64,000 nt of DNA from Escherichia coli (GCF_016026235.1 NZ_CP065613.1), one strand, 5' to 3'. Counted from the stretch's first letter, positions 7,065-54,048 are shown. The notes: generated from the letters alone by a model not told the origin. Translations and numbers: made by a program.

Positions 7065-8729
7065 TTAAAACGTTTCCCAGTTCTCCCCGCTATCTGCCAC
7101 TGCCATTTTACGCGGCGTAGCTGGCGTCACGTTTTTTACCACAGCCGATGTTTCACGCTGCTGTTGCTGCTGTTGCTGAATCCGGAACACTGCCACAGCT
7201 TCGGTCAGGCGACTGGCCTGCTCTTCCAGCGCGGCGGCGGCAGCGGCAGATTCTTCCACCAGCGCAGCGTTCTGTTGAGTTACCCGGTCCATCTCAGCAA
7301 CCGCTAAGCCAACCTGATCGATACCACGGCTCTGCTCATCAGAAGCAGAAGCAATTTCGCCCATAATGTCCGTCACGCGGGTCACGGCACTGACAATCTC
7401 CGCCATTGTTTCCCCTGCGCTTTCGACCAGCGTAGAGCCAACATCTACTTTCCCCACCGAGTCTTCAATCAGGCTTTTAATTTCACGAGCCGCCTGAGCG
7501 CTGCGCTGGGCCAGATTACGCACTTCACCCGCGACCACCGCAAAACCGCGCCCTTGCTCACCCGCGCGCGCTGCTTCAACCGCCGCGTTCAAAGCCAGAA
7601 TATTGGTCTGGAAGGCAATGCCGTCAATTACGCTGATAATATCGGCGATTTTCTGCGAACTGGTGGAGATATCGCGCATAGTCTGCACCACGTTATCTAC
7701 CACTTTGCCGCCGCGTTGCGCCGTTTCAGAAGCACTTAACGCCAGGTGGCTGGCCTGGCGCGCATTTTCGGCGTTCTGTTTCACCGTTGCGGTCAGTTGC
7801 TCCATGCTGGCTGCCGTCTCTTCCAGCGAAGCGGCCTGTTGCTCGGTGCGCGAAGAGAGATCGTTATTGCCGGTAGCGATTTCGCTGGCACCGCTATAGA
7901 TGGCATTGGCCCCGTTGCGCACATCACCGACGGTACGCATCAGCTCTCCCTGCATATGGCGCAAACTCTCTGCCAGTTGCCCCATCTCATTAGAGCCATC
8001 CACCTCAATCGGTTTCACCAGATCGCCGCCTGCAATATGACGAATGCTGTCAATCAGGCGATTCATTGGCGCTACCAACGAGGCTTTAATACCGAACCAG
8101 ACGGCGAAGATGACTGCCAGTACGACGATCATCACGCCCACCAGAATCCACATCGCCTGGCTGTAGGAGGCATTATTATCGCTGACGGCGATATCATAGA
8201 GCCGATCGTTTTGCTCCATGTAAGCCACATACTGCTTCTCGAAACCGTCCTGATATCCCTGGGTCGGCTGATCAAAGAACTCGTTGATTTTGCCTGCACC
8301 TAACAGTTGGATCAGCTCCGCCAGCGCATTGTGATAAATATCGTAATTACGTTTGATCTCTGCCGCTGCGGCGGTGCTCTGACGCGGGTCACGCGGCAAC
8401 GCTTCGTAATCCGCCCAGTTTTTTTCCGCCTGTTTCAGCGAAATACTGGCACTCTCCATCAGCTCAGCAACGGTTGAACCGCTACCAATATTATTCTGAT
8501 CCATCATGTAGCGGATACCCGCGCGGTTGAGGGTGTTACGCGTCTGCAACAACGCGACCCAGCTGCCATTCAGCGTGGATTGCTGCTGGCGAATGGTTTG
8601 TAAAACAGTGAAATTTTCTTTGTCATTCTTTAAGGCATTAAAGAACAGACCGCCTGATGTCAGTTGTAAAAGGCCAAAAACGGCCAAAACCAGCAGTAAG
8701 CTGGTCACAATTTTGATACGTTTTAACAT
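7065..8729 (-). CDS. tsr: Methyl-accepting chemotaxis protein I (serine chemoreceptor)
   Basis: 554-aa [30 protein letters not shown]... with HAMP and MCP signalling domains and C-terminal NWETF pentapeptide; contains a Q7 tract ([10 protein letters not shown]) encoded by (CTG/TTG)7 at 7158..7178. Confidence 0.9.
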
Positions 8730-11305: not shown

Positions 11306-11509
11306 ATGTTTGGTAACTTAGGACAGGCAAAAAAATATCTCGGCCAGGCGGCAAAGATGTTGATTGGCATTCCAGACTACGACAACTACGTCGAGCATAT
11401 GAAGACCAACCATCCCGACAAGCCGTACATGAGCTATGAAGAATTCTTCCGCGAACGCCAGAACGCGCGCTACGGCGGCGATGGTAAAGGCGGTATGCGC
11501 TGTTGTTAA
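11306..11509 (+). CDS. yjiX: Small conserved protein YjiX
   Basis: 67-aa [55 protein letters not shown]...; immediately downstream of btsT as in K-12. Confidence 0.8.
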
Positions 11510-11519
11510 TGGAGAGAGC

Positions 11520-12476
11520 ATGAACCCGATTGCAGTTACCCTACTCACCGGTTTTTTAGGCGCGGGAAAAACCACCCTGCTGCGCCATATTCTTAACGAA
11601 CAACACGGCTACAAGATTGCCGTGATTGAAAACGAATTCGGCGAAGTCTCCGTTGATGATCAACTAATTGGCGACCGCGCCACGCAGATCAAAACGCTGA
11701 CCAACGGCTGCATCTGCTGTTCGCGCTCCAACGAGCTGGAAGACGCACTACTCGACCTGCTGGATAATCTCGACAAGGGCAATATTCAGTTTGACCGTCT
11801 GGTCATTGAATGCACCGGCATGGCCGATCCCAGCCCGATTATTCAGACCTTTTTCTCCCATGAGATTTTATGCCAGCGTTACCTGCTGGACGGTGTGATT
11901 GCGCTGGTGGATGCGGTACATGCCGACGAGCAGATGAACCAGTTCACCATCGCTCAGTCCCAGGTTGGCTACGCCGACCGTATTCTGCTGACCAAAACCG
12001 ACGTCGCAGGCGAAGCAGAAAAACTGCGTGAACGCCTGGCGCGCATCAACGCCCGTGCACCGGTCTACACCGTCACCCACGGCGACATCGACCTGGGCCT
12101 GCTGTTCAACACCAACGGTTTTATGCTGGAAGAGAACGTCGTCAGCACCAAACCGCGTTTCCACTTTATCGCGGATAAACAAAACGATATTTCGTCGATT
12201 GTGGTGGAACTGGATTACCCGGTAGATATCAGCGAAGTTTCCCGGGTGATGGAAAACCTGCTTCTGGAATCGGCAGATAAACTGCTGCGTTACAAAGGGA
12301 TGCTGTGGATTGACGGCGAACCTAACCGCCTGCTGTTCCAGGGCGTCCAGCGCCTCTACAGCGCCGACTGGGACCGCCCGTGGGGCGATGAAAAACCGCA
12401 TAGCACAATGGTGTTTATCGGGATTCAGTTGCCGGAGGAAGAGATTCGGGCAGCGTTTGCGGGGTTGAGGAAGTAA
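11520..12476 (+). CDS. yjiA: COG0523-family P-loop GTPase (metal chaperone-like)
   Basis: Walker A GFLGAGKTT near the N-terminus and CXCC motif (GCICCS); start taken at ATG 11520 (MNPIAVTLLTGFLGAGKTT), giving 318 aa; the longer ORF-track start at 11436 overlaps yjiX. Confidence 0.85.
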   Translation: MNPIAVTLLTGFLGAGKTTLLRHILNEQHGYKIAVIENEFGEVSVDDQLIGDRATQIKTLTNGCICCSRSNELEDALLDLLDNLDKGNIQFDRLVIECTGMADPSPIIQTFFSHEILCQRYLLDGVIALVDAVHADEQMNQFTIAQSQVGYADRILLTKTDVAGEAEKLRERLARINARAPVYTVTHGDIDLGLLFNTNGFMLEENVVSTKPRFHFIADKQNDISSIVVELDYPVDISEVSRVMENLLLESADKLLRYKGMLWIDGEPNRLLFQGVQRLYSADWDRPWGDEKPHSTMVFIGIQLPEEEIRAAFAGLRK

Positions 12477-12487
12477 TTTTGGATGAT

Positions 12488-12518
12488 GGCCGCCATGGGG
12501 CGGCCTGAATTATTTTTT
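12488..12518 (+). terminator. Rho-independent terminator after yjiA
   Basis: Hairpin ggccgcc-atgg-ggcggcc followed by tgaattattttttg. Confidence 0.55.
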
Positions 12519-12812
12519 GTTCTGATCGCGCAGCATCGCTTCACGTAAAATTGCGTTCAGGCGAGTTTGATAGCCTTTACCTGGTCGCTTCAACCATTCC
12601 ATCACATCAGCATCAATACGCACCGAAGCCTGAGTTTTCAATGGCCGATAAAACTTACCGCGTTCGGCGTTAGACCATTGCTCATCGCTGGAAGGTGGGA
12701 TATCACTGTAATCAATATCTTCGTCGGATTTATTCGCCAGCGCCTTCAGTTCGGCCTCATGCTGCACATCGAGTGTAGAGGAGGTCCCTCGTTTATGTTT
12801 AACCATGCTCAT
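12510..12812 (-). CDS. BrnA-like antitoxin (ribbon-helix-helix C-terminal domain)
   Basis: Internal start MSMVKHKRG... chosen; C-terminal SVRIDADVMEWLKRPGKGYQTRLNAILREAML is the BrnA signature; start overlaps the stop of the upstream toxin gene by 14 bp. Confidence 0.65.
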   Translation of the reverse strand: MSMVKHKRGTSSTLDVQHEAELKALANKSDEDIDYSDIPPSSDEQWSNAERGKFYRPLKTQASVRIDADVMEWLKRPGKGYQTRLNAILREAMLRDQNKK

Positions 12813-13113
12813 AGCGATTCCTCTCTTTACGATCTGCTTTTCGTGCACTGATGATTCGAATAATTTCATTTCCGCTTTCGAAACGGATGGTATGCGCAAC
12901 CAGAATAACCACGATGCCGTAAACCAGGCCGATTGTCTGCCAGCGATACTCACCGTTTTCTATGCGTTCTTGCTGTGACAAATGTTGTGGATCATCAAAC
13001 AATAACACCGCATCTTCAAAGCGGATGCCATGTTTCACCCGATTACTTTTGGCCTTGTTTTCATCCCATTCAAACTCCATTGGCATAATTGCCATCCCTA
13101 ATTGTATATACAA
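12799..13113 (-). CDS. BrnT-like toxin (DUF497, RelE-fold ribonuclease family)
   Basis: MEFEWDENKAKSNRVKHGIRFEDA...ISARKADRKER matches the conserved BrnT pattern (WDExK...KHG...ISxRKAxxKER); start ambiguous between 13113 and the internal Met around 13083. Confidence 0.7.
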   Translation of the reverse strand: MYIQLGMAIMPMEFEWDENKAKSNRVKHGIRFEDAVLLFDDPQHLSQQERIENGEYRWQTIGLVYGIVVILVAHTIRFESGNEIIRIISARKADRKERNRYEHG

Positions 13114-13284
13114 AAATGTATCTACAATTATTCTGCAATTATAGCGTTGATGTTGGAAATAGCATCACGTTTCGAATAATCAACCATAAAATTGACAATG
13201 AGTAAGTTGGACTTGATTCATCCAATAGAATTTCTCGCCTGACATGGCACACTAAACACCTCGCTGTCGGGTAATGACTCCAAC

Positions 13285-13787
13285 TTACTGATAGTGTTTT
13301 ATGTTCAGATAATGCCCGATGACCTTGTCATGCAGCTCCACCGATTTTGAGAACGACAGTGACTTCCGTCCCAGCCTTGCCAGATGTTGTCTCAGATTCA
13401 GATTATGTCGCTCAATGCGCTGAGTGTAACGCTTGCTGATAACGTGCAGCTTTCCCTTCAGGCGTGATTCATACAGCGGCCAGCCATCCGTCATCTATAC
13501 TACGACCTCAAAGGCCGACAGCAGGCTCAGAAGACGCTCCAGTGTGGCCAGAGTGCGTTCACCGAAGACGTGGCCACAACCGTCCTCCGTATCCTGTCAT
13601 ACGCGTAAAACAGCCAGCGCTGACGTGATTTAGCACCGACGTAGCCCCAATGTTCGTCCATTTCAGCGCAGACAATCACATCACTGCCCGGTTGTATGCG
13701 CGAGGTTACCGACTGCGGCCTGAGTTTTTTAAGTGACGTAAAACCGTGTTGAGGCCAACGCCCATAATGCGTGCACTGGCGCGACAT
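13285..13787 (-). pseudogene. insB: IS1 insB', disrupted
   Basis: InsB-homologous frame split into 13527..13787 and 13285..13494 by a frameshift and an amber codon. Confidence 0.7.
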
Positions 13788-13981
13788 CCGACGCCATTCA
13801 TGGCCATATCAATGATTTTCTGGTGCGTACCGGGCTGAGAGGCGGTGTAAGTGAACTGCAGTTGCCATGTTTTACGGCAATGAGAGCAGAGATAGCGCTG
13901 ATGTCCGGCAGTGCTTTTGCCGTTACGCACCACGCCTTCAGTAGCGGAGCAGGAAGCACATCTGATGGAAATGGAAGCCAC
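13706..13981 (-). CDS. insA: IS1 InsA
   Basis: 91-aa [46 protein letters not shown]... (zinc finger plus HTH). Confidence 0.85.
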
Positions 13982-14295
13982 GCAAGCACCTTAAAATCAC
14001 CATCATACACTAAATCAGTAAGTTGGCAGCATTACCAAATTTTAATTACACTTAAGGTGTATATTTTCTATGCAAGCCATCAATTAAAGAGGTGTAATGT
14101 TCTGATGACTATTTGTAATCGTTATACATTCTGACCTGGAGTCAGAAGGTATTTCTCTGTCTGTGTATTCGCAGGCAGTGTGGTTGATTACATGAAATTC
14201 AGTACATTTGTCCTTCTCGCCTGCCTTTCGTCATTACCGACGGTATTGAATTTCGTTTTCCCCATTGGGGTTCTCCGGACAAGGAGTTGTTTGTT

Positions 14296-15528
14296 ATGCC
14301 ACGTTTTTTTGCCCGCCATGCCGCCACGCTGTTTTTCCCGATGGCGTTGATTTTGTATGACTTTGCTGCGTATCTGTCGACGGACCTGATCCAGCCAGGG
14401 ATCATTAATGTGGTCCGTGATTTTAATGCCGATGTCAGTCTGGCCCCGGCTGCCGTCAGTCTCTATCTCGCTGGAGGCATGGCATTGCAGTGGCTGCTGG
14501 GGCCGCTTTCCGACAGGGTTGGCCGCAGGCCGGTGCTGATTACCGGGGCGCTAATATTTACCCTTGCCTGCGCTGCGACAATGTTCACAACGTCTATGAC
14601 ACAGTTTCTTATCGCGCGTGCAATTCAGGGCACCAGTATCTGTTTTATTGCCACCGTTGGTTATGTCACGGTGCAGGAGGCGTTCGGACAGACAAAAGGG
14701 ATCAAGTTGATGGCGATTATCACCTCCATCGTACTGATTGCGCCGATTATTGGCCCGCTTTCCGGCGCAGCTCTGATGCACTTTGTGCACTGGAAAGTCC
14801 TTTTTGCCATCATTGCGGTTATGGGTTTTATCTCATTTGTTGGCTTACTGCTGGCGATGCCAGAGACGGTGAAGCGCGGCGCGGTTCCATTTAGCGCCAA
14901 AAGCGTCTTGCGCGATTTTCGTAATGTCTTTTGCAATCGGCTGTTCCTCTTTGGCGCAGCAACCATCTCTTTAAGCTATATCCCCATGATGAGTTGGGTG
15001 GCTGTCTCGCCGGTGATCCTGATCGACGCGGGCGGCTTAACAACTTCGCAGTTCGCCTGGACACAGGTTCCGGTGTTCGGCGCGGTGATTGTCGCGAATG
15101 CCATCGTGGCGCGTTTCGTTAAAGATCCGACCGAACCGCGCTTTATCTGGCGTGCCGTACCCCTTCAACTGGTTGGCCTCGCGCTGTTGATTATCGGCAA
15201 TCTGCTGTCACCGCACGTCTGGCTGTGGTCGGTGCTGGGCACCAGTCTGTATGCTTTCGGGATTGGTTTGATTTTCCCGACCTTATTCCGCTTTACGCTG
15301 TTTTCCAATAACTTACCGAAAGGGACCGTCTCCGCATCGCTGAATATGGTGATCCTGATGGTGATGTCTGTCTCGGTCGAAATCGGCCGCTGGCTGTGGT
15401 TTAACAGCGGTCGCTTGCCGTTTCATCTGTTAGCCGTTGTGGCAGGCGTTATCGTCGTTTTCACCCTGGCCGGATTGCTTAATCGCGTGCGCCAACATCA
15501 GGCTGCCGAGCTGGCGGAGGAGCGGTGA
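14296..15528 (+). CDS. mdtM: Multidrug efflux MFS transporter MdtM
   Basis: ORF recognised as MdtM/YjiO ([43 protein letters not shown]...); ORF track uses TTG 14287; IS1 end lies 260 bp upstream. Confidence 0.9.
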
Positions 15529-50171: not shown

Positions 50172-50993
50172 TTGTTTAAAGCAAATCATGTTCCGGTATT
50201 AATGTATCATCATGTCAGCCATTGCCCAGGACTGGTTACACTTTCTCCCGAGACATTCCGGAAACAAATGAAATGGTTGGCTGAAAACAACTGGAAAACA
50301 CTGTCATCAGATGAACTGGAGTTTTTTTATCGGGGCGGAAAACTTCCCCGTAAAAGCGTTATGTTGACATTTGATGATGGATACCTTGACAACTGGTTTC
50401 AGGTATATCCTTTATTAAACGAGTTTAATCTCAAGGCACATATTTTTTTAATTACCAGTTTTATTGGAAATGGTCCGGTTCGTCACTCTCCTGGAAAGGA
50501 ATATTCTCATCGCGATTGCGAACATCAAATAGCAACCGGGAATGCTGATAATGTTATGCTTCGCTGGTCTGAAGTGAACGAAATGTTGCAATCTGGTCTG
50601 GTCGAATTTCATGTTCATACACATACTCATACACGTTGGGATAAAAAGTTCACTTCACGAGAAGAACAGTGTAAACATCTTCGGCAGGACTTATTGAGCG
50701 GGAGAGAATATTTAAAAAAAATGACAGGAAAATGCAGTAAACATTTGTGTTGGCCGGAAGGTTATTATAACAAGGATTATATTCAGATCGCTGAAGAACT
50801 TGGATTCCATTATTTATATACAACAGAAAGAAGAATGAATGCTCCAACTAAAGGAACTACACGGATAGGAAGAATAAGCACCAAGGAACGGGAAAATTGC
50901 GTATGGCTGAAAAGACGACTTTTTTATTATACAACACCGTTTTTTTCATCGTTGCTGGCCCTTCATAAGGGGCCAAGATTACCGGATGACTAA
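50172..50993 (+). CDS. shf: Polysaccharide deacetylase-family protein (Shf-like)
   Basis: 273-aa ORF with NodB-type motif (MLTFDDGYLDNW); first gene of a four-gene cluster whose order deacetylase - glycosyltransferase - VirK-like - LpxM-like equals the shf-rfbU(capU)-virK-msbB2 operon of Shigella/EAEC/EHEC plasmids; TTG start preceded by gagggggc. Confidence 0.65.
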   Translation: MFKANHVPVLMYHHVSHCPGLVTLSPETFRKQMKWLAENNWKTLSSDELEFFYRGGKLPRKSVMLTFDDGYLDNWFQVYPLLNEFNLKAHIFLITSFIGNGPVRHSPGKEYSHRDCEHQIATGNADNVMLRWSEVNEMLQSGLVEFHVHTHTHTRWDKKFTSREEQCKHLRQDLLSGREYLKKMTGKCSKHLCWPEGYYNKDYIQIAEELGFHYLYTTERRMNAPTKGTTRIGRISTKERENCVWLKRRLFYYTTPFFSSLLALHKGPRLPDD

Positions 50994-50995
50994 TA

Positions 50996-52084
50996 ATGAA
51001 TATACTATTTACGGAATCATCACCGAATATAGGTGGTCAGGAATTACAGGCTGTTGCTCAAATGAAGGCCCTGAAGAAAATGGGGCATTCAGTTCTGCTT
51101 GTCTGCAGGGAGAACAGCAAAATTGCTTTTGAAGCCAGTAAGTTTGGAATTGATATCACATTCGCGTTATTTCGAAACAGTCTTCACATCCCTACTGCAT
51201 GGAGATTACTCGGAATAGTTCATGGTTTTCAGCCCAATGCAATCGTTTGTCACAGTGGGCATGATAGCAATATTGTTGGTTTAGTACGGTTATTCACTTG
51301 GAAACATCCATTCAGAATTATCAGGCAAAAGACATATTTGACACGAAAAACAAAAGTTTTTTCAATAAATCATTTTTGCGATGAGGTGATTGTTCTCGGA
51401 ACAAGTATGAAGACACATCTGGAGCAGGAAGGATGTCGAACCCGGGTTACTGTTGTGCCTCCAGGCTTTGATTTCCAGAAATTATACGTTGATTCCCGAA
51501 ACAGTTTGCCTCCAAATGTTCTTTCTTGGCTGGCGTCCCGAAGGGGATGCCCCGTTATTGCTCAGGTAGGAATGTTGCGCCCGGAAAAAGGGCACGAATT
51601 TATGTTGAATTTACTGTTCCATTTAAAAATGAATGGACGACAGTTCTGTTGGTTGATTGTGGGGTCTGGTTCGCCTGAACTGCGGGAGCATTTACAGTAT
51701 CAGATTGACAGTATGGGCATGCATGATGATGTTTTTATTGCTGACAATGTTTTTCCTGCCGCCCCCGTATATCGGGTTGCCAGTCTGGTGGTTCTGCCTT
51801 CAGAAAACGAATCGTTTGGTATGGTACTGGCAGAAGCATCGGCATTTTCTGTGCCTGTACTGGCCAGTCAGATTGGTGGAATCCCTGATGTTATTCAGAA
51901 CAACCAGACCGGGACATTGTTACCAGCAGGTAATAAGCACGCATGGATGTGCGCCCTGAATGATTTTTTTAATGACCCTGGGCGTTTTTATCAGATGGCT
52001 CGCCTGGCAAAACAGGATATAGAAGAGCGGTTTGATATTAATAAAACTGCGTTAAAAATACTCACATTAGCGAAGCAAAAGTAA
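50996..52084 (+). CDS. capU: Family-1 (GT4-type) glycosyltransferase (CapU/RfbU-like)
   Basis: 362-aa ORF with retaining-GT C-terminal features (ESFGMVLAEA..., ...GGIPDVI...); second gene of the cluster. Confidence 0.65.
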   Translation: MNILFTESSPNIGGQELQAVAQMKALKKMGHSVLLVCRENSKIAFEASKFGIDITFALFRNSLHIPTAWRLLGIVHGFQPNAIVCHSGHDSNIVGLVRLFTWKHPFRIIRQKTYLTRKTKVFSINHFCDEVIVLGTSMKTHLEQEGCRTRVTVVPPGFDFQKLYVDSRNSLPPNVLSWLASRRGCPVIAQVGMLRPEKGHEFMLNLLFHLKMNGRQFCWLIVGSGSPELREHLQYQIDSMGMHDDVFIADNVFPAAPVYRVASLVVLPSENESFGMVLAEASAFSVPVLASQIGGIPDVIQNNQTGTLLPAGNKHAWMCALNDFFNDPGRFYQMARLAKQDIEERFDINKTALKILTLAKQK

Positions 52085-52088
52085 CAAT

Positions 52089-53039
52089 ATGTTTTCTATA
52101 AGTAACTTATCATTTATCGGTTTCCTTAAAAGGATTATTTTTTCCTCAGATTCACTACCGGGGAAGTGGGAACACAGAAAATTTCGGTTCATGTACATTT
52201 TGCGATGTTCTATAAATCCGGTTGTCAGTATTCGATATTATTATGAACTGCGTTCCTTGCCGTGCATTGAGGATATTCTGGCAATACACCCCACGTTGCC
52301 AGCAAGAATTCATCGCCCTTATTTGCATAAAGGGGGGCGCGCCTGGACCCGTGGACAATATATTCTTGAGCATTATCGCTTTGTGCAAAATTTGCCAGAA
52401 AAATATTCTAAATTTTTGTTTCCACAAAAATCGGTATCATTAGTCCAATTCATCGGGAAAGATGGAGAGAATTTTGATATCCAGTGTTCTCCCAGTGGTT
52501 TTGACCGGGAAGGAGAGTTGATGTTGTCATTGTTTTACAATAAAACAGTTATTGCCCGGTTAACATTTTCAGTCATTCTGACTCAAAATGGACACATTGC
52601 TTTTATTGGCGGATTACAGGGAGCCCCTAAAAATACCGGACCTGATGTTATTCGGTGCGCAACCCGGGCCTGTTATGGGATTTTCCCAAAACGGATTATT
52701 TTTGAAGCATTTTGTGCGTTGATGAAAGCTTGCAATATCTCTGAGTGTCTGGCAGTCAGTGAGCACAGTCATGTTTTCCGGCAATTGAGATACTGGTATC
52801 AGAAACGCAAAACCTTTGTTGCGGTCTATAGTGATTTCTGGGAGTCTGTAGCAGGAAAAACCTGTGGTGACTGGTACAGATTACCAACCCAGGTGATTCG
52901 AAAGCCGCTAAGCGATATAGCCAGTAAAAAACGCTCTGAGTACCGAAAACGATACGCTTTGCTGGATTATATCCATGAAACTACTATCCGCTCTTTGGAT
53001 GCATATCCTGTACACTCAGAACATCAGAATTTAAATTAA
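52089..53039 (+). CDS. virK: VirK-like protein (DUF535 family)
   Basis: 316-aa ORF; assignment rests mainly on its position between the glycosyltransferase and the lipid A acyltransferase. Confidence 0.55.
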   Translation: MFSISNLSFIGFLKRIIFSSDSLPGKWEHRKFRFMYILRCSINPVVSIRYYYELRSLPCIEDILAIHPTLPARIHRPYLHKGGRAWTRGQYILEHYRFVQNLPEKYSKFLFPQKSVSLVQFIGKDGENFDIQCSPSGFDREGELMLSLFYNKTVIARLTFSVILTQNGHIAFIGGLQGAPKNTGPDVIRCATRACYGIFPKRIIFEAFCALMKACNISECLAVSEHSHVFRQLRYWYQKRKTFVAVYSDFWESVAGKTCGDWYRLPTQVIRKPLSDIASKKRSEYRKRYALLDYIHETTIRSLDAYPVHSEHQNLN

Positions 53040-53103
53040 GGTTTGATGTATCCTCTGAATAAAACAGTAATGATAATTTTGGTAGAGGCATTCGCACTAA
53101 ATA

Positions 53104-54048
53104 ATGAAAAAATATAAATCTGAGTTTATTCCTGAATTTAAGAAAAATTACCTTTCCCCTGTTTACTGGTCTACATGGTTCCTTTTGGGAATGATTGCAG
53201 GTATTTCAATGTTTCCCCCTTCATTCAGAGATCCTGTCTTGGCAAAAATAGGGCGTTGGGCGGGCAGATTGAGCAAAAAAGCTCGTCGCAGGGCGACGAT
53301 TAATTTATCGCTTTGTTTCCCGGAAAAGAGTGATACAGAACGGGAAATAATTGTCGACAAAATGTTTGCCACAGCATTGCAATCCATAGTGATGATGGCA
53401 GAACTGGCAATTCGTGGTCCGGAAAAGTTCCAGAAACGAGTGTTCTGGAAAGGCCTCGAAATTCTTGAGGAAATTCGACACAATAATAGAAATGTGATTT
53501 TTCTGGTTCCCCATGGCTGGAGCGTGGATATTCCTGCAATGTTGCTGGCAGCTCAGGGAAAAAAAATGGCCGCCATGTTTCATCAGCAACGAAATCCAGT
53601 GATTGATTATGTCTGGAATTCAGTACGGCGTAAATTCGGGGGGCGCTTACATGCCCGGGAGGATGGGATAAAACCATTTATTCAGTCAGTACGCCAGGGA
53701 TACTGGGGATATTACCTCCCAGATCAGGATCATGGTCCTGAATACAGTGAATTTGCTGATTTTTTTGCGACCTATAAAGCGACATTACCAATCATTGGAC
53801 GTCTGATGAACATCAGTCAGGCTATGATTATACCACTTTTCCCGGTTTATGATGAAAAAAAACATCTCCTGACTATTGAAATTCGGCCACCAATGGATGC
53901 TTGCATTGCCAGCGCGGACAATAAAATGATTGCCCGACAAATGAACAAAACAGTGGAAATTTTGGTGGGGCCACATCCGGAACAGTATGTCTGGGTTTTA
54001 AAATTGTTAAAAACACGCAAATCAAACGAAGCGGACCCGTACCCTTGA
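53104..54048 (+). CDS. msbB2: Lipid A late (secondary) acyltransferase, LpxM/MsbB paralogue (MsbB2-like)
   Basis: 314-aa ORF with long collinear similarity to E. coli LpxM as I recall it (EFIPEF..., RRRATINLSLCFPEKSDTEREIIVDKMFATA, MMAELAIRGPEKFQ, VIFLVPHGWSVDIPAMLLAAQGKKMAAMFH, FGGRLHAREDGIKPFIQSVRQGYWGYYLPDQDHGPEYSEFADFFATYKATLP). Confidence 0.8.
   Translation: MKKYKSEFIPEFKKNYLSPVYWSTWFLLGMIAGISMFPPSFRDPVLAKIGRWAGRLSKKARRRATINLSLCFPEKSDTEREIIVDKMFATALQSIVMMAELAIRGPEKFQKRVFWKGLEILEEIRHNNRNVIFLVPHGWSVDIPAMLLAAQGKKMAAMFHQQRNPVIDYVWNSVRRKFGGRLHAREDGIKPFIQSVRQGYWGYYLPDQDHGPEYSEFADFFATYKATLPIIGRLMNISQAMIIPLFPVYDEKKHLLTIEIRPPMDACIASADNKMIARQMNKTVEILVGPHPEQYVWVLKLLKTRKSNEADPYP

Follow-up and report, generated by a model that had tools for sequence, protein, structure and literature searches.

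What do two small, overlapping genes on the minus strand encode at the yjiA edge of a documented defence island, and what role might they play there? The question is raised by positions 12510–13113 of a 64,000-nucleotide stretch of Escherichia coli DNA (GCF_016026235.1, NZ_CP065613.1; this whole stretch is referred to as the window). A reading made from the sequence only had taken the pair for a BrnT/BrnA-type toxin–antitoxin module at a defence hotspot. Profile searches, structure comparison and comparison of loci across genomes and genera were used to follow up this reading. The locus is very probably a chromosomal type II toxin–antitoxin operon of the BrnT/BrnA family, and it is an ordinary feature in that it is already known and already annotated as BrnT/BrnA in RefSeq.

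Two overlapping genes of the BrnT/BrnA family

In the mechanical ORF list, positions 12510–13113 are the outer limits of two maximal frames, one of 147 aa with a GTG start (12510–12953, minus strand) and one of 104 aa with a TTG start (12799–13113, minus strand). The overlapping pair is present in the window as earlier described, and the peptides quoted for it were recovered from the ORF list and its translations. The suspicion that both frames were over-extended proved correct: the starts assigned here, at 13086 for brnT and at 12812 for brnA, give shorter proteins. For brnT, the conserved start is the ATG at 13086, from which the protein begins MPMEFEW; PGAP uses the same start, and the N-terminus of the toxin chain in PDB entry 7VD7, PMEFEW, matches it. 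An in-frame ATG slightly upstream is missing from Salmonella. For brnA, the start at 12812 (MSMVKHK) lies 7 nt after a conserved Shine–Dalgarno sequence, GAGAGGAA. The coding features are as follows.

12799–13086, minus strand: brnT, encoding a 95-aa BrnT-family protein, a predicted RelE/BECR-fold ribonuclease toxin (Pfam and PDB matches, RefSeq identity).
12510–12812, minus strand: brnA, encoding a 100-aa BrnA-family antitoxin (Pfam, 7VD7_B match, tandem C-terminal model).
BrnA residues ~14–57: putative toxin-binding segment; residues ~59–100: predicted C-terminal ribbon–helix–helix (RHH) DNA-binding domain.
12799–12812, minus strand: ATGAGCATGGTTAA, 14 bp shared by the end of brnT with its stop and the beginning of brnA.
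12818–12826, minus strand: AGAGAGGAA, Shine–Dalgarno sequence of brnA, within the 3' end of brnT and conserved in Salmonella.

The layout is that of a type II toxin–antitoxin operon, with small, adjacent, co-oriented genes that overlap and with the Shine–Dalgarno sequence of brnA inside brnT. The order proposed earlier, toxin and then antitoxin with a 14-bp overlap, agrees with both the ORF list and the PGAP annotation; starting brnA at its second ATG, as the Salmonella annotation does, would shorten the overlap to 8 bp. Loci of Citrobacter, Enterobacter and Klebsiella also have the 14-bp overlap, and the architecture of 95 aa plus 100 aa recurs with it in other genera, always in the region equivalent to the immigration control region discussed below. 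Such an overlap implies translational coupling of brnT and brnA.

For the upstream gene, the profile-HMM search returned a full-length match to Pfam PF04365 (BrnT_toxin, formerly DUF497), covering residues 7–88 and model positions 1–77 of 77 (E = 4.7e-24, 84.9 bits), and the product is 100% identical to the RefSeq entry 'BrnT family toxin' WP_001297643.1. For the downstream gene, the match to PF14384 (BrnA_antitoxin, DUF4415) was likewise full length, covering residues 37–93 and model positions 1–68 of 68 (E = 3.1e-17). Both family assignments of the sequence-only reading are thereby supported. An NCBIfam scan of the two proteins returned no family for either, and NCBI names BrnT/BrnA proteins by other means. 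Homologues of BrnA form over 1,800 clusters; their sources call them 'BrnA antitoxin family protein' or 'DUF4415', and they come from genera that include Citrobacter, Salmonella, Enterobacter, Klebsiella and Raoultella.

Against the sequences of solved structures, phmmer matched BrnT to 7VD7_A (E = 4e-52, ~85% identity) and to Brucella BrnT, 3U97 (E = 1.6e-4; the alignment is gapped in mid-toxin). A RelE-like fold, in which a four-stranded antiparallel sheet packs against short helices, is predicted for BrnT through its homology to 7VD7_A and 3U97 alone. The RNase activity of Brucella BrnT requires D6, E7, K9, R41 and E78 (review PMC5086665), and in the phmmer alignment with 3U97 these five residues align identically with D8, E9, K11, R48 and E88 of the toxin described here. 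By homology, free BrnT would be a small RelE-like (BECR-fold) RNase that cleaves RNA and halts translation. Residues 14–57 of BrnA match 7VD7_B, the antitoxin chain co-crystallised with the toxin (E = 1.4e-16). Through this match a toxin-binding segment can be assigned to BrnA, which would neutralise BrnT by wrapping this N-terminal/central stretch around it.

The two chains of 7VD7, deposited as 'toxin' and 'antitoxin', cover toxin residues 2–95 and antitoxin residues 14–57. Each differs by one residue from a Salmonella Infantis product cross-referenced to LT2 STM4528 or STM4529, and from these one-residue differences the entry appears to be the complex of the Salmonella orthologue. In Salmonella enterica, STM4528/STM4529 share with the window genes their lengths, the toxin-then-antitoxin order with overlap, the candidate operator palindrome and a location between mrr/hsd and yjiA, with identities of 85% for the toxin and 84% for the antitoxin. 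They differ in ~15% of residues and in the presence of mrr-hsdRMS-symE, which is deleted here. A literature search returned no functional study of the E. coli module or of the Salmonella orthologue; by full-text search, no paper on the 7VD7 structure was found, and STM4528/STM4529 appeared only in large-scale mutant screens.

The founding member of PF04365/PF14384 is reportedly the Brucella abortus BrnT/BrnA pair (PDB 3U97) of Heaton et al. 2012. With this pair the present module shares the Pfam families, the toxin-first operon, the RHH antitoxin, predicted here to be autoregulating as well, and the five RNase residues; it differs in its distant sequence, in that Brucella is an alphaproteobacterium and in its genomic context. 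Toxicity and neutralisation would be expected in E. coli by analogy with Brucella BrnTA, from which they are extrapolated over a distant similarity (E = 1.6e-4). Modules of the same family and with the same gene order occur in Acinetobacter, where the toxin is ~58% identical. There they are plasmid-borne (563 plasmid records, many of them small), whereas the E. coli module is chromosomal and single-copy; plasmid maintenance is the natural reading of the Acinetobacter modules. RelE/RelB and HigB/HigA resemble BrnTA in pairing a small RNase toxin with a protein antitoxin that also represses the operon, and HigBA is, like BrnTA, toxin-first. Their Pfam families are others than those of BrnT and BrnA. 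As mRNA interferases, RelE and HigB depend on the ribosome, a trait that BrnT may or may not share, and the C-terminal position of the predicted DNA-binding domain sets BrnA apart.

The candidate operator and the predicted antitoxin DNA-binding domain

Upstream of brnT, and downstream of brnA, four features were assigned.

13099–13130, minus strand: TAATTGTAGATACA-TTTT-TGTATATACAATTA, candidate BrnA/BrnTA operator, a palindrome with 14-nt arms that match at 13 of 14 positions.
13092–13099, minus strand: AGGGATGG, Shine–Dalgarno-like sequence of brnT with an AGGGA core.
13138–13143, minus strand: TATAAT, candidate -10 box of brnTA, conserved in E. coli, Salmonella and Citrobacter.
12488–12505, no strand assigned: G+C-rich hairpin GGCCGCC-ATGG-GGCGGCC of 7 pairs, all G-C, between the convergent genes yjiA and brnA.

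The arms of the palindrome (13099–13112 and 13117–13130) lie directly upstream of the brnT ribosome-binding site, so placed that the palindrome sits between the -10 box and the Shine–Dalgarno sequence. Salmonella and Citrobacter have it in perfect form, and the core is kept in five genera (E. coli, Salmonella, Citrobacter, Enterobacter and Klebsiella, the last represented by Klebsiella oxytoca), with flanks that diverge to the point of being unalignable. The AGGGA core of the brnT Shine–Dalgarno sequence is conserved in four of the five, with one base missing in K. oxytoca. Between E. coli and Salmonella, the ~75 bp adjoining brnT are nearly invariant, and the distal intergenic DNA is unalignable. 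Because synonymous sites in the adjacent genes are saturated (dS 1.5–3.8), conservation of the palindrome indicates constraint. The palindrome fits an operator to which BrnA would bind. In Brucella, BrnTA assembles as a 2:2 tetramer, which binds its own promoter and represses it (PMC5086665), and the conserved palindrome agrees with this behaviour.

A scan for consensus sigma-70 promoters called none on the minus strand. The TATAAT box has no good -35 element near it, which is why the scan made no call there, and we infer the brnTA promoter from the conserved TATAAT alone. From a promoter just upstream of 13130, a single transcript would carry the toxin gene first and the antitoxin gene second. 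A CRP-like TGTGA motif upstream of the -10 box was considered and rejected, as its second half-site is poor and its spacing to the -10 box unsuitable. At the other end of the operon, the hairpin at 12488–12505 is terminator-like for yjiA; its T-run lies on the plus strand only, and the brnTA transcript probably ends there too. An Rfam scan of the whole window returned no RNA family.

If BrnA binds this palindrome, its C-terminus would be the part expected to do so. For the full-length BrnA monomer, the AlphaFold model was poor (pLDDT 62) and was left out of the fold search; a poor monomer model is expected, since an RHH domain folds only as a dimer and the N-terminus folds on the toxin. An artificial single-chain tandem of residues 56–100 was then modelled, from a shallow alignment of homologues. 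The tandem model showed strand–helix–helix (beta-alpha-alpha) twice, with a pLDDT of ~71 (70–85 in the folded parts) and a pTM of 0.60. Its best Foldseek matches in the PDB were F-plasmid relaxosome chains of ~110–120 residues, at a probability of 0.95–1.0 and a TM score of ~0.62, with E-values of only ~0.01. The match remains in a PDB entry without TraM, and we take the chains to be most likely TraY, a natural tandem RHH protein. When the BrnA alignment profile was searched against PDB sequences, 7VD7_B was the sole match, with no solved RHH protein among the results. According to a survey of the RelE/ParE superfamily, BrnA of Brucella carries a C-terminal RHH domain. Taken together, the tandem model with its relaxosome fold matches and the published statement on BrnA support, with moderate confidence, the earlier proposal that the BrnA C-terminus forms an RHH dimer. 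In the mechanism proposed here, this domain would dimerise, and the complex, seated on the palindrome at 13099–13130, would repress its own operon. Should BrnA no longer be supplied, for instance because the locus is lost, host expression is blocked or BrnA is proteolysed, free BrnT would arrest growth.

Genomic position, distribution and selection

The local gene order is opgB, lgoDRT, tsr, btsT, yjiX, yjiA (11436–12476, plus strand), brnA/brnT, IS1, mdtM (14287–15528, plus strand) and yjiN. Between yjiA and mdtM/yjiN lies the enteric immigration control region, which is documented as a defence island; the site in the window is its yjiA edge. In other E. coli, yjiA and brnTA are followed by a gene for an Mrr-like endonuclease, a type I restriction–modification (R-M) system, symE, yjiS, yjiR and an rpn gene. 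In Salmonella, mrr-hsdRMS-symE lies beside brnTA; in Citrobacter the module adjoins yjiA, in Enterobacter it adjoins yjiN, and in K. oxytoca it is found near symE-hsdR-hsdS. In the window, the space next to brnT is occupied by an insertion sequence.

13270–14036: IS1, full length; terminal inverted repeats intact, 9-bp target duplication absent.

Homology to an hsd-bearing strain ends at 13269 and resumes at 14036, with IS1 filling the gap. Relative to strain Ecol_542, ~11.3 kb of cargo is lost, comprising the Mrr-like endonuclease gene, hsdM, hsdS, hsdR, symE, yjiS, yjiR and rpn; most simply, this restriction cargo would have been lost through an IS1-mediated deletion. The deletion associated with IS1 does not reach brnT, ending 183 bp before it and sparing the candidate promoter and operator. 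The exact brnT-IS1-mdtM junction is common to 1108 of 5426 complete E. coli genomes, so that a large lineage retains no restriction genes in the immigration control region. In a related strain, PGAP lists the IS1 transposase as frameshifted with an internal stop. What is left of the island in the window is brnTA and IS1, with no defence gene. Thus the 'defence hotspot' of the sequence-only reading holds for the map position, which is that of a documented island, and does not hold for the content of the interval in this strain.

IS1 also features elsewhere in the window. Two more copies, at 36212–36982 and 38019–38791, share 92% and 98% identity with the IS1 of strain D2 and sit directly upstream of the genes for ferric citrate uptake at 39023–46568, among which fecI and fecA were confirmed by NCBIfam; the fec region is IS-bounded. 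A truncated fimD, encoding the type 1 fimbrial usher, lies at 35014–36162 (minus strand); the C-terminal 382 residues are left (profile positions 496–877 of 877), the remnant ends at the IS1 copy at 36212–36982, and fimH is downstream, judged from a related genome. The upstream fim genes are not at their K-12 place, and the strain may therefore lack type 1 fimbriae. A four-gene cluster at 50172–54048 (plus strand) encodes a polysaccharide deacetylase with a PgaB-like N-terminal domain, a GT4 glycosyltransferase, the product of a third ORF that had no match in NCBIfam, and a second lipid A myristoyltransferase, of the LpxM/MsbB family (E = 4e-133). A related genome, where IS elements are found close by, labels these genes polysaccharide deacetylase, capU, virK and lpxM; the cluster resembles shf-capU-virK-msbB2 of Shigella and EAEC virulence plasmids.

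Distribution was examined with a query restricted to the module, which matched 2112 of the 5426 complete E. coli genomes, in 1780 of them, roughly a third of the total, at full length. The full-length module is always single copy and chromosomal in all but one record, and the full-length records sampled were annotated by PGAP as 'BrnT family toxin' and 'BrnA antitoxin family protein'. K-12 and ~60% of complete genomes are without brnTA; in K-12 both genes are absent and mrr abuts yjiA. Some E. coli lineages have a disrupted brnT or an orphan brnA whose brnT partner is deleted or replaced. In E. coli SA186, for example, an orphan brnA (8006–8308) precedes genes for Fic, GmrSD and type I R-M. 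Plasmids of Acinetobacter commonly carry more distant BrnT relatives, at ~58% identity.

Purifying selection on the two genes is strong: the E. coli–Salmonella comparison gives a dN/dS of 0.024 (brnT) and 0.062 (brnA).

Two matches that might have suggested mobility were set aside. The lone E. coli 'plasmid' match was rejected as evidence of plasmid origin, as it carries the chromosomal genes mdtM-yjiN-yjiM-yjiL next to brnTA. This record, NZ_LT985269.1 (RCS63_p), is 22 kb long and typed as a mobilizable plasmid; it holds chromosomal ytiA-yjiL-yjiM-yjiN-mdtM together with brnTA in a segment adjoining sul2, aph(3'')-Ib and aph(6)-Id, and is either a captured chromosomal segment or an assembly artefact. 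The single match in the phage collection (AFYI01000007.1) is a 501-kb chromosomal contig of Salmonella Infantis and hence no evidence of phage carriage; the search of that collection returned no true phage with brnTA.

Role of the module

What could such a pair do at this place? Most likely, it has long resided at the yjiA edge of the immigration control region as a module that maintains itself by addiction. The data favour a resident module by its fixed position amid turnover of the cargo, by the loss of the toxin before the antitoxin in some lineages and by survival of the nearby deletion. The pattern of loss, in which brnA is orphaned or a deletion spares the promoter and operator, fits an addictive module.

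An alternative is that the module is primarily an anti-phage abortive-infection system and so contributes to the function of the island instead of being carried in it as a passenger. When a phage shut off host expression, BrnA would run out, and the BrnT thus freed would destroy RNA before the phage cycle could be completed. Its place inside a documented defence island, its occurrence elsewhere beside an Mrr-like enzyme, type I R-M, SymE, GmrSD and Fic, and the reported defence roles of other RelE/ParE-superfamily toxins all speak for this. However, PADLOC-DB v2.0.0 contained no family matching BrnT or BrnA at E ≤ 0.01, BrnT appears in the RelE/ParE survey solely as an RNase in vitro, with no data on defence, and the literature search found no paper tying BrnTA to phage defence in E. 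coli. Moreover, a position conserved while true defence cargo turns over is the opposite of what is typical of defence cargo, and K-12 and ~60% of complete genomes do without the module. The suggestion in the sequence-only reading that the pair might act in phage abortive infection or in stabilisation of the island thus found no direct support, there being no PADLOC match, functional paper or phage-borne relative. A dedicated phage-defence role for brnTA is possible, and abortive infection as its primary function is unlikely.

The module could instead be a decayed or domesticated remnant, its toxin attenuated or non-toxic and its toxin–antitoxin activity gone, with BrnA serving as a small transcription factor. 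Chromosomal toxin–antitoxin modules often show no phenotype on deletion (PMC7280312), and the lineages with brnA alone or a disrupted brnT would be in keeping with decay. Against this stand the two intact ORFs in the window, the conservation of all five known catalytic residues, the dN/dS of brnT, sustained over the E. coli–Salmonella divergence, and the conservation of the Shine–Dalgarno sequences, the overlap and the operator. We regard such a remnant as highly improbable. That the frames are open by chance, or a mis-called piece of a neighbouring gene, might be thought from a purely mechanical ORF list with several other overlapping frames in the interval, but it is already refuted by full-length profile matches (E of 1e-17 to 1e-24), a solved orthologous complex, more than 1,800 homologous clusters and strongly purifying selection.

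A bolder reading, which we consider improbable, is that brnTA is an ancient, positionally fixed 'edge guard' of the immigration control region and not a mere passenger. If so, the guard might work in one of two ways. Post-segregational killing would block deletions and cassette replacements extending across the end of the island nearest yjiA, which would explain both the deletion that stops 183 bp short of brnT and the orphan antitoxins left after toxin loss. Alternatively, the module would be an abortive-infection back-up for the neighbouring restriction systems, in which case the ~20% of complete E. coli genomes from which the restriction cargo is deleted would have no other defence function remaining.

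The finding has little significance beyond correct annotation, as the family, the fold, the mode of neutralisation and the autoregulation are established. What it adds for E. coli is a picture of brnTA as staying in place at the yjiA edge while the rest of the defence island changes quickly. As the module survives in a common lineage without the restriction genes of the island, this lineage would offer a natural test of whether toxin–antitoxin pairs protect island borders.
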